This document shows, piece by piece, positions 6,419-54,994 of a DNA stretch of 64,000 nucleotides (position 1 is its first letter; each line of letters starts with the position of its first letter). Origin of the DNA: Candidatus Stammera capleta (GTDB lineage Bacteria > Pseudomonadota > Gammaproteobacteria > Enterobacterales > Enterobacteriaceae); assembly GCA_015134695.1 (NCBI GenBank), contig CP043987.1, positions 14,423 to 78,422 of the forward strand. Reading direction: 5' to 3'. Below the pieces are notes generated by a model. The model was not told the origin of the DNA. It worked only from the letters and a program-made list of their open reading frames with translations, and did no database searches. A program made the translations under genes and the position numbers.

Positions 6419-6754
6419 TTAAAAATATTTATAATTTTTATCTCTTAAAAAATATAATTTTGCTTTACTTTTTTTAGTATTTTTTTTTACTATTATAATT
6501 TTATTTATTATAGGAGAATAAAATTTAAATAATCTTTCTATACCTTCTCCATTAGAAATTTTTCTTAATATAAAACAAGAATTTATACCTTTATTTTTAA
6601 TAGAAATTACAATACCTTGAAATGATTGTAATCTTTTTTTATTAAATTCTATTACTCAAATTTGAACTCTTAAAATATATCCAATTTTAATATTTAAACA
6701 AATATCATTTTTAATATATTTTTTTTCTACATAATTTATAAGATAATTTTTCAT
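6419..6754 (-). CDS. rplS: 50S ribosomal protein L19
   Basis: MKNYL...RVQI-W(TGA)-VIEFNKKRLQSFQGIVISIKNKG...RKISNGEGIERLF...AKLYFLR aligns along its length with E. coli L19; 111 aa. Confidence 0.95.
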
Positions 6755-6764
6755 ATTAATTTCA

Positions 6765-7461
6765 TTACTTATTTTTAAATAAAAAATTTTTTAATAAATA
6801 TGGTTTAATTAATAAAGTTTTTCTAATTGATTTATTAAACCTTCATAAAAATATTTTTTTATGATTTCCAGATAATAAAACTTTAGGTACAGATAAATTA
6901 TTAAATATCCTAGGTTTTGTATAATTAGGGATAACCTAATAAACCATTTAAATAATTAAAAGAATCTAATTTAGAAGATTCAATATTATTTAAAATTCCA
7001 GGTATATTTCTAACTAATATATCTATAACAACTAAAGTTGATATTTCACCACAACTTATAATATAATCTCCTATAGACAATTCAATATTAACATATTTAT
7101 CAATAATACGTTGATCTATACCATTATATCTTCCACATATAAATATTAAAGATTTATAACTTAATAATTTATTAATTAAAAATTTATCTATTATTTTACC
7201 TTGTGGTGATAAATATATTACAAAAGAATTAGAATATATACTATTTACTTTTTTTATAGCTAAATATAAAGGTTCAGGTCTTAATATTAAACCTGCTCCA
7301 CCACCATAAATTTTACCATCAAATCTACTATTTTTAATAAAATTATTAATATTAAAAACATTTAATATTATTTTATTAAGTTTAATAGCTTTATATATTA
7401 AACCATTTTTAAATGGAGATATAAAAAAATTAGGATTTATACTTAAAATATTTAAATACAT
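6765..7461 (-). CDS. trmD: tRNA (guanine37-N1)-methyltransferase TrmD, interrupted by a +1 frameshift at 6925-6930
   Basis: The 0-frame part 7461-6928 (178 aa: ...[13 protein letters not shown]...[11 protein letters not shown]...LLGYP) stops at TAA 6927-6925. Skipping one base continues [33 protein letters not shown]... to TAA 6767-6765, the conserved TrmD C-terminal domain. See findings. Confidence 0.8.
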
Positions 7462-7465
7462 AAAT

Positions 7466-7723
7466 TTAACAAATATATTTTTTTTTATATTTATTTACTA
7501 AATATAAAACTCTTTTAGACATTAAAGCACCTTCTTTTAATCAAATATTTAATAATTTAATATCTATATATATACTTTTATAATTTTCAAAAACACAAAA
7601 AGGATTATAATATCCTATCTTTTTTATAAATTTTCCACTACAACATCTGCGTCTATCTGCTATAACTATATTATAAAAAGGTACTCTTTTTCTTCCATAA
7701 CGAACTAAACGTATAATAATCAT
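7466..7723 (-). CDS. rpsP: 30S ribosomal protein S16
   Basis: [25 protein letters not shown]... continues across TGA (conserved W) into [11 protein letters not shown] to TAA 7466-7468; 85 aa. GGAG lies 5 nt upstream of the ATG, preceded by an 18-nt U run in the mRNA (7733-7750). Confidence 0.9.
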
Positions 7724-40272: not shown

Positions 40273-40416
40273 TTAAATATTAAAATAATAATAAGATTAT
40301 TATATATTTATATTTATTTTTTTTTAATATATAAATATTAAATATTTATATTATAAAATTATAATATAATATAAACATATATGTGTATATAATAATATTA
40401 TTTAAATAAATAAAAT

Positions 40417-41616
40417 ATGTTTAAAAATAGAGATCATAGATTAATTAATAAAAAATTAAATTTATATCATATAAATGATATTTCTCCAGGAATGATATTT
40501 TGACACCAAAATGGATTTATAATTTTACAAAATATTAAAAAATTAATAAGAAAAAAAATATATAAATATAATTATAAAGAAGTAATAACACCTACTTTAA
40601 TTAATAAAAATATTTGAATAAAAAGTGGACATTGAAAAAATTATAAAAAATTTATTTTTTCTACAAATTTTAAAAAAAATGATTTATGTATTAAACCCAT
40701 GAATTGTTTAGGACATATTAATATATATAATTATAAAATTAGATCATACAAAAAATTACCAATTAGAATATTTGAATTTGGTATATGTTATAGGAATGAA
40801 AATTCAGGATCATTACATGGTTTAATAAGAACAAAATCTTTTACTCAAGATGATGCACATATATTTTGTAGTATATATCAAATAAATAAAGAAATATATA
40901 AATGTATAAATATGATATATGAAATATATAATACATTTAATTTTAAAAAAATATATATATATATTTCAACAAAACCAAAAAAATATATAGGAAATAAAAA
41001 AATATGAAATATAGCTGAAAAACAATTAAAACATGTTTTAAAAAAAAAAAAAATAAAATTTAAAGTAAAAAAATATGAAGGAGCTTTTTATGGGCCTAAA
41101 ATAGAATTTATATTAAAAGATTTTTTAGAAAGAAAATGACAATGTGGAACTATACAGTTAGATTATTTTTTATCAAAAAAATTAAATATTTTTTATATAG
41201 ATAAAAATAATAAAAAAAAAAATCCAATTATAATACATAGAGCAATATTAGGATCATTAGAAAGATTTATAGGAATATTAATAGAACAATATAATGGTAT
41301 ATTACCTATATGGTTATGTCCAATTAAAATAGTTGTAATAAATATTTCTATTAAACATATAAAATATTCTAAATATATACTTAAAAAATTAAAAAATAAA
41401 AATATACATTCTATTGGTGATTTTGAAAATAAAAAAATAAACTTTAAAATAAGAAAATATACTTTACAAAAAATACCTTACATGATAATATGCGGCGATA
41501 ATGAAATTTTAAATAAAAATATTAATGTAAGAAAACTAAAAAATAATAAATTATATAATATAAGTTTAAAAAAATTTATTAAAAATATTAAAAATAAAAT
41601 TAAAAAATTTAAATAA
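40417..41616 (+). CDS. thrS: Threonyl-tRNA synthetase, catalytic plus anticodon-binding domains only
   Basis: [33 protein letters not shown]... aligns from about residue 240 of E. coli ThrRS ([29 protein letters not shown]). KPMNCLGH and FTQDDAHIFC are present. 399 aa versus 642. Confidence 0.9.
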
Positions 41617-54180: not shown

Positions 54181-54994
54181 TATTTAAAATTCCAAAATTA
54201 CTAAAATTTTATAATTAATTAAATTATAATTAAATAAATAAAATATTACATATATTTAAATAATTAAAAAAAATATTTTTTTATTATATATAAATTTTAA
54301 TATAATATTAAAATTAATATAATACAAAAAAAATAAATATTATTTATTAATAACATAATTCAAAAAAAAAAGTAAAAAAAATATTTGTAAATATTTTATT
54401 ATAATTAAAAATTAATATTATATATTTACAAAAAAAAAATAAATAAAATAAAATTAATTATATTAAAATAAATAAAAATATATTTTATATATTTAAAATA
54501 TATAAATAAAATTTTAAAATATAAAAAAAATATAATAATATATATATAAATATTTTATATAAAATATAAATATATATACTATTCATTATAGTATAAAAAA
54601 AAATATTAAAATAAGTTTATTTATATAAATATTTTAATAAAATATATAAAATCATTAAAAAATAATTTTTTACATAATAAAATATACACAATTAATTAAA
54701 AAAAAATATTTTTTTTTATATTTAAACAAAATGATTTTTATATTTAATATAAATAAAATTTTTTTATTTTTTTTTAAGAATTAATAAAAATATATTAAAT
54801 ATTTTAATACATAAAATATAAAATATTATTAAATTTTAAAAAAATACTAAATAATATATATATATATATATATAAATTAAAAAATATTTTATATTTTTAG
54901 AAAAATATTTTAAAGAAAAACTAAAAATATTTATATATTATAAATAAATAAAATTATTAATAAAAAAAAATAAAAATAAAATTTAATTAAAATT
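54181..54994. other. 814-bp almost pure A/T non-coding spacer between divergent rnz and glnS
   Basis: The longest non-coding stretch in the window. The track shows no ORF of 60 aa or more in any frame, and G/C bases are only scattered. (AT)10 at about 54854-54874. Confidence 0.6.

Follow-up and report, generated by a model that had tools for sequence, protein, structure and literature searches.

A one-base insertion shared by eight Stammera genomes at a proline codon of trmD suggests a gene read through by +1 slippage of tRNA-Pro

TrmD makes 1-methylguanosine at position 37 of tRNA (m1G37), and textbooks credit the enzyme and its modification with keeping ribosomes in frame at proline codons; TrmD is also an antibiotic target. 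Sites of +1 frameshifting are known from antizyme (UCC-UGA-U), yeast Ty1 (CUU-AGG-C) and the Listeria phage PSA (CCC-UGA), where the P-site tRNA shifts when the A-site codon is decoded slowly, as we propose below for trmD, and antizyme, too, senses the state of a small molecule or an enzyme. These cases involve other organisms, tRNAs and stimulators, and we know of none that lies in a gene for the enzyme modifying the shifting tRNA. Two bacterial systems stand closer. In prfB, a stop codon occupies the A site as the P-site tRNA moves by +1 to a codon that overlaps the first, and the product intervenes at the step that decides between termination and shifting, thereby closing a negative feedback loop. 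In E. coli pheL, the sequence UUC-CCC-UGA gives a +1 shift of 15%, a penultimate Phe codon being optimal, Tyr giving about half and Arg abolishing the shift (Gurvich et al. 2011, PMC3082878). The CC[C/U]-[C/U] sequences form a documented +1 slippery class for tRNA-Pro in which m1G37 suppresses the shift (PMC4519876), and Salmonella trmD mutants suppress +1 insertions at CCC-N through slippage in the P site (PMC3617221). We describe here the trmD gene found in 64,000 nucleotides (64 kilobases, kb) of Candidatus Stammera capleta DNA (contig CP043987.1, positions 14,423 to 78,422), hereafter the window. This gene is split by a +1 frameshift at a proline codon followed by a stop; it shares with prfB the stop codon behind the shift codon and, as proposed below, the feedback by the product. 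Stammera, a symbiont that lives extracellularly in tortoise and hispine leaf beetles and degrades pectin, uses genetic code 4 and has lost prfB (PMC10540940).

The original prediction, made from the letters of the window, was that trmD breaks at CCC-TAA and continues in the +1 frame; all its coordinates (Table 1) and the mRNA string UUAGGU-UAU-CCC-UAA-U were verified. The 0-frame segment extends over the N-terminal SPOUT/trefoil-knot domain and the linker and includes the catalytic DSF region, and its 178-amino-acid product is identical to the database protein P0001. It is closed directly after CCC by the TAA at 6927-6925, which is a stop under translation table 4 as well, and beyond this TAA the 0 frame is packed with stops. 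Skipping a single base, T6927, gives AAT TAT ACA AAA CCT AGG and so on, and the fused product then counts 231 amino acids. This fused protein matches PF01746 with 149 bits (cut-off 27.3; 1.5e-43) over positions 11-191 of a profile of 195. Taken separately, the N part reaches 104 bits (1e-29) and the C part 30.5 bits (3.7e-7; profile positions 154-191), which is still above the gathering score. When compared with the chains 3knu, 4mcb, 4ypw and 1uaj of the Protein Data Bank (PDB), it aligns over residues 1-226 with E-values of 1e-47 to 1e-46 and without a gap at the junction, where gllgyPNytkp stands against GSLEYPQYTRP and GLLDCPHYTRP. The Pfam match of the C part alone and the ungapped alignment bear out the further claim that the +1 segment is the conserved C-terminal domain of TrmD. 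Among the off-frame stretches of 54 codons in the genes of the window, 0.19% are free of stops (chance 0.0019), so that chance would hardly leave a +1 segment of 54 codons open.

The comparison was extended to 47 Stammera trmD loci (46 fetched and the window), together with four contigs obtained by exact protein look-up. The gene is kept in all 47 genomes, and in eight of them a one-base insertion occupies the same position. The window and L028 (CP144780) read TAT CCC T-AAT, and L033, L039, L041, L042, L044 and L046 read TTT CCT T-AAT. The 38 intact genomes, which lack the extra base, have CC[T/A] or TC[T/A] followed by AAT, ATG or TAT, mostly CCT-AAT. A protein search with the fused window protein leads to the same picture: its nearest relatives sit on Stammera capleta chromosomes of 210-325 kb, six out of seven relatives at 66-77% identity stop at LLGYP or LLGFP, and most of the remaining matches read straight through as LLGYPNYT[K/R]P. 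The frameshifted genomes differ from the window by 23-34% at the protein level. The site sequences are TATCCCTAAT or TTTCCTTAAT, with homopolymers of 3 nucleotides (CCC) or of 2-4 nucleotides (TTTT/CC/TT). Sequencing in the source genome study was by Illumina only, and three of the frameshifted genomes are matched by independent Logan assemblies with 0 mismatches over 720 nucleotides. A homopolymer sequencing error, which had been raised as an alternative, is therefore refuted for the shared site, which is present in eight independently sequenced Illumina genomes, three of them with Logan matches.

The second alternative raised at the outset, a recent pseudogene, meets the fate of the first. 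In all eight frameshifted genomes no stop interrupts the +1 segment before the normal C-terminus, and the SGNH and WR motifs are retained. The ratios of nonsynonymous to synonymous differences per site (pN/pS), obtained from Nei-Gojobori counts under table 4, are 0.29 downstream of the frameshift and 0.43 upstream for all eight genomes, 0.20 and 0.35 within the six-genome clade, and 0.35 and 0.50 between the two clades; the absolute values are inflated, extreme AT bias compressing the synonymous sites, but the comparison of downstream with upstream stays clear. Purifying selection after the frameshift is at least as strong as before it. With a downstream frame open in eight out of eight genomes, and a pN/pS of 0.20-0.35 within and between the clades that is no higher than upstream, the pseudogene is refuted, and the constraint on the part that follows the frameshift implies that this part is translated in the +1 frame. 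The eight genomes and the selected downstream frame give strong comparative support to the functional +1 frameshift at Pro-stop that had been predicted.

The place of the shift can be narrowed considerably. A +1-frame TAG (Table 1), whose equivalent is present in all the frameshifted relatives as stop-VFLNYT or stop-DFLNYT, lies three codons upstream of the junction, so the shift must fall inside GGU-UAU-CCC (6935-6928). This interval of three codons, closed by the +1 TAG on one side and by the 0-frame UAA on the other, holds one slippery codon, that for Pro. In the window, Tyr is the penultimate or E-site codon, CCC the P-site codon, UAA the A-site stop and AAU the first codon of the +1 frame, and the motif conserved among the eight genomes is CC[C/U]-UAA-U after a Tyr or Phe codon. 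Judged by sequence only, a slippery P-site codon, CC[C/U]-U, thus lies beside a slowly decoded A-site codon, UAA. The slippery codon was originally given as CCC: its nature as a proline codon ahead of UAA is retained, but CCC itself is not conserved, since six of the eight genomes have CCU-UAA-U. In these genomes CCC is rare, at 1.6-3% of the Pro codons, and yet two of them have it at the shift site; one clade may carry it because slipperiness was selected for, or just because the inserted base was a C.

The sequences show that the frameshift is conserved, that the frame downstream of it is under selection, that the interval left for the shift is narrow and that the motif belongs to the slippery class; from these we infer that the shift would come about by slippage of tRNA-Pro, that a feedback would result and that the arrangement may have an adaptive value. 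The explanation that we favour as the probable one is that trmD of this Stammera lineage is a recoded gene, expressed by +1 slippage of tRNA-Pro and endowed with an intrinsic feedback. The ribosome would translate 178 codons and arrive at Tyr or Phe, then Pro, then UAA. Termination after the C-terminal aromatic residue and Pro would be slow, and the A site would stay empty pending release, so leaving the P-site tRNA-Pro the time to slip by +1 on CC[C/U]-U. The Asn-tRNA would then read AAU and the C-terminal tRNA-binding domain would be made, the shifted product P-N-Y-T restoring the exact ancestral amino-acid sequence. As the m1G37 made by TrmD restrains the very slip that full-length TrmD needs, low TrmD should raise TrmD synthesis, and a negative feedback through m1G37 should follow logically from established enzymology. 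One possible adaptive value is that the site may keep the amount of TrmD much lower than that of the ribosomal proteins transcribed with it, a disproportion that E. coli achieves by other means. Table S2 of the source genome paper gives 28-31 tRNA genes per Stammera genome, from which a single tRNA-Pro(UGG) is likely. Buchnera has a single tRNA-Pro(UGG), which carries m1G37 (PMC3439896), and this isoacceptor is naturally shift-prone (PMC4519876). No tRNA-Pro gene, efp or prfA lies within the 64-kb window, and the source genome paper does not mention them.

The history of the insertion was followed on a neighbour-joining tree built from GyrB, S16, L19 and TruA (1,201 columns, 200 bootstraps). 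The window and L028 are grouped in 100% of the bootstraps and the six CCT-T genomes in 94%; these six together with L023, whose trmD is intact, are grouped in 100%, and a single clade of all the frameshifted genomes appears in 0%. The position of L023 between the two frameshifted groups implies either two gains, or one gain and one precise reversion. Two histories accordingly fit the tree. In the first, two separate insertions fell on one and the same position, a duplicated C in one group and a duplicated T in the other; in the second, a single insertion is combined with a precise reversion in the L023 lineage and an additional C/T change. In each of them the site would go back to the duplication of one base within CCU-AAU, an ancestral sequence that was pre-adapted because any inserted base yields Pro followed by UAA.

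Several observations weigh against slippage with feedback, or against parts of it. L023, nested between the frameshifted groups, manages with an intact trmD, and the frameshift is thus not obligatory. In E. coli no termination context is stronger than UAA-U, and in six genomes the +1 re-pairing from CCU to CUU needs a G-U and a U-U pair. In five neighbouring genes, slippery CCY-Y contexts are not depleted in the frameshifted genomes (0.296 against 0.305), hence there is no sign of a general or chronic hypomodification. No stimulatory RNA structure was found when 141 nucleotides around the site were folded (z = -0.37), and no Rfam family lies at the site, the Rfam matches in the window at the gathering threshold being five tRNAs. 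The prfB-like geometry, which had been put forward with the frameshift, is doubtful. The 3-nucleotide UAU spacer of the window is the same as in E. coli prfB, and AGG[U/A] lies upstream of the site at the prfB spacing. However, its last base varies (GGT in 5/8 and GGA in 3/8 of the frameshifted genomes), and AGG[U/A] is ancestral Leu-Gly coding, shared with most intact relatives. Alignment with the trmD genes of sister strains thus showed the insertion in seven other genomes, but the upstream AGG[U/A] equally in the intact relatives. Four-base sequences resembling a Shine-Dalgarno (SD) motif precede 8 of the 51 putative starts in the window, for a background of 5.5%. From the sequences, an SD stimulation of the prfB kind at the trmD site would seem not to be supported.

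Two further observations may be added. Most genes in the genome of the window appear to start without an SD motif. At window positions 6931-6940, AUUAGG and CCUAAU can form a hairpin of 6 base pairs, which occurs at the same place in all the Stammera loci; its presence in the intact relatives makes it probably a by-product of Leu-Gly-Tyr-Pro-Asn coding.

Among the other explanations, the one that survives best is that of a tolerated, self-suppressing frameshift, fixed by drift and without regulatory value, that is, a neutral or slightly deleterious ratchet using the same slippage mechanism. In a vertically transmitted symbiont under strong drift, a shortage of TrmD would by itself restore enough read-through at such a proline site. 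The UAA invites this explanation, since any base inserted in the ancestral sequence creates it automatically, and so do the intact gene of L023, by which the frameshift is dispensable, the different and apparently recent +1 insertion in trmD of L049, also at a Pro codon, and the existence of other tolerated frameshifts such as the poly(A) one in gyrB of L041. On the other hand, the shared site has persisted through deep divergence, with a pS of 0.2-0.5 within and between clades; it arose twice or was retained; and one clade has the rare CCC, while the other has replaced Tyr by Phe just ahead of the Pro codon, both being substitutions by which shifting increases at E. coli pheL. None of these points is decisive, and we regard the tolerated frameshift as unlikely though far from negligible.

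The insertion of L049 (CP062308.1, 3459-3470) is an observation of its own. It reads ATA CCC A-GGA GTA, where the sister genome L010, 91% identical, has ATA CCA GGA GTA; the extra C falls in a Pro codon and is followed by the rare Arg codon AGG, not by a stop. The +1 frame is open for 81 codons, and the nonsynonymous to synonymous changes relative to L010 number 10:3 downstream and 13:16 upstream, a difference that is not significant. This frameshift, known from one assembly, may be recent, tolerated or an error. With it, trmD frameshifts number nine in 47 genomes, all at Pro codons, which make up about 10 of the 231 codons of trmD, and five neighbouring genes in 43 genomes show one frameshift, that of L041 within a poly(A) run of its gyrB. 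Frameshifts thus cluster in trmD. A broader reading can be built on this: frameshifts at Pro codons of trmD would be recurrent and self-stabilising, with two to three independent origins in Stammera (the C-duplication giving CCC-UAA, the T-duplication giving CCU-UAA, and CCC-AGG in L049), each forming a feedback circuit that senses m1G37 on tRNA-Pro and sets the TrmD output. We regard this reading as a tentative possibility and are more inclined to doubt it than to adopt it.

A gene truly split in two, in which ribosomes would re-initiate after the UAA and the 178-amino-acid N and 53-amino-acid C polypeptides would assemble non-covalently into an active enzyme, is very improbable. TrmD lends itself to the idea, being made of two domains joined by a flexible linker, with a dimer active site formed by the N domain of one subunit and the C domain of the other, and the PDB alignment places the break near the domain boundary. 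However, the +1 frame has no ATG, GTG or TTG between the TAG and NYT[K/R]PR, none is conserved in the first 25 codons or so, and no SD-like motif announces a downstream start; moreover the junction residues are invariant, which is unexpected if the start lay further downstream.

A correction at the RNA level, by transcriptional slippage or editing, or a tRNA-Pro with an enlarged anticodon loop reading CCNU as a quadruplet, is judged a shade less probable still. Transcriptional slippage rescues frameshifts in other insect symbionts, and a candidate of that type exists in gyrB of L041, but slippage needs runs of about 9 or more, whereas the runs at the trmD site are of 2-4 nucleotides. As for a special tRNA, Salmonella has tRNA-Pro suppressors of the sufA6 and sufB2 types (PMC3617221), but the tRNA gene set of Stammera leaves little room for an extra tRNA-Pro. 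The gyrB gene of L041 (= L006; CP144769.1, about 1720-1770) consists of two open reading frames (ORFs) of 263 and 478 amino acids, the break lying inside a poly(A) run coding for lysine. Such poly(A) breaks are the classic endosymbiont case, thought to be rescued by transcriptional slippage. Least probable of all is a sequencing or assembly error or a dying trmD, which can invoke a window genome known from one assembly, an exact-sequence look-up of the 178-amino-acid product that matched no contig on record, and a homology search and cluster look-up that give this product from one NCBI record and no Logan assembly, but which is contradicted by a site common to eight genomes, three of them Logan-confirmed, by the open downstream frame under purifying selection and by the retention of trmD in 47 out of 47 genomes.

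Table 1. Position of the two trmD segments, the shift site and the adjoining genes in the 64-kb window
Feature	Position	Strand	Description and basis
trmD 0-frame segment	6928..7461	-	178 codons, ATG 7461 to Pro CCC 6930-6928; ends LNGLLGYP
Candidate frameshift site UAU-CCC-UAA-U	6924..6933	-	Sequence; same-position one-base insertion in 8 Stammera genomes
trmD +1-frame segment	6765..6926	-	53 codons and TAA 6767-6765; C-terminal tRNA-binding domain, NYTKPR...SGNH...WR
+1-frame TAG stop	6936..6938	-	Three-frame translation, stop-VIPNYTKPR
rpsP (ribosomal protein S16)	7466..7723	-	85 amino acids by table-4 translation; Pfam Ribosomal_S16 on relatives' orthologues
rplS (ribosomal protein L19)	6419..6754	-	111 amino acids by table-4 translation; Pfam Ribosomal_L19 on orthologues

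The trmD locus reads gyrB, tRNAs, rpsP, trmD, rplS and truA, all on the minus strand; rpsP adjoins trmD upstream in the same orientation, its stop lying 5 nucleotides ahead of the trmD ATG, and rplS follows directly, which makes up the classical rpsP-trmD-rplS operon, without rimM, in the window and in the relatives. The window as a whole has a G+C content of 12.4% over 64 kb, and dense full-length ORFs run across it only when TGA is read as Trp; this table-4 ORF map is consistent with the initial remark that the other genes of the window are intact. Two regions away from trmD may be noted. Positions 54184-54979 (796 nucleotides), nearly pure A/T and without an ORF of at least 50 codons, a tRNA or an Rfam match, form the sole large gap in the tightly packed window, between a gene of 304 amino acids on the minus strand and one of 535 on the plus strand, and may serve as a spacer, resemble an origin or be what is left of a lost gene. 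At 40414-41616, on the plus strand, an ORF of about 400 amino acids looks like a catalytic core from its first residues; if it is a threonyl-tRNA synthetase, a candidate suggested by its neighbours, the usual N-terminal domains are missing.

Searches of the open-access literature brought up no earlier description of recoding in Stammera or of a frameshifted trmD, and the source genome paper mentions neither. The TrmD records of about 178 amino acids in these genomes probably do not represent the working enzyme, and caution is advisable with gene-content tables based on them. Should the recurrent feedback circuits prove true, a tRNA-modification enzyme would for the first time be known to regulate itself by recoding, and the circuits would report naturally on how faithfully the reading frame is kept. 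A natural gene by which TrmD is made only through the very error that TrmD prevents would add to prfB just one more type of autoregulatory +1 frameshift in bacteria, in which the product tunes the slipping P-site tRNA and not an A-site factor. The sequence Tyr/Phe-CC[C/U]-UAA-U would then be a cassette tested by evolution for measuring m1G37-dependent frame maintenance, and the locus would show how an essential gene survives a frameshift under extreme drift.

In conclusion, the trmD of this lineage is best filed as a stop-codon-dependent +1 recoding with a proposed feedback by the product, which would work like prfB and pheL but lie outside the prfB family. The frameshifted genes that remain functional in the tiny AT-rich genomes of endosymbionts resemble it in their setting, but their rescue by poly(A) slippage needs long runs, of about 9 or more A/T, which are absent from the trmD site. 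The Salmonella his +1 mutations at CCC-N studied in the Bjork laboratory follow the same logic, a hypomodified tRNA-Pro slipping in the P site (PMC3617221); they are laboratory mutations in unrelated reporter genes combined with separate trmD lesions, whereas the Stammera insertion is natural, lies inside trmD itself and has been kept through speciation. The closest precedent is pheL, where an aromatic codon is likewise followed by Pro and then by a stop, and where tRNA-Pro slips by +1. Its stimulator is the nascent Phe-Pro end, which slows termination, and Stammera has Phe-Pro-stop in six genomes and Tyr-Pro-stop in two. The stop differs, being UAA read by release factor 1 (RF1) in Stammera and UGA read by the weak release factor 2 (RF2) in pheL, and so does the outcome: the pheL shift is an 'incidental' by-product without known use at the natural end of a leader peptide, whereas the shift in Stammera trmD is internal to the gene of an essential enzyme and needed for the functional protein. 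With regard to prfB, the shift site is CC[C/U]-UAA-U, with Pro and UAA, and not CUU-UGA-C, with Leu and UGA, which sets it apart from the prfB sites, and the internal SD of prfB has as its counterpart a weak ancestral 4-mer, AGG[U/A], in an SD-poor genome. The products differ as well: that of prfB acts on the recognition of the stop in the A site, while TrmD would act, through m1G37, on the slipping tRNA in the P site.

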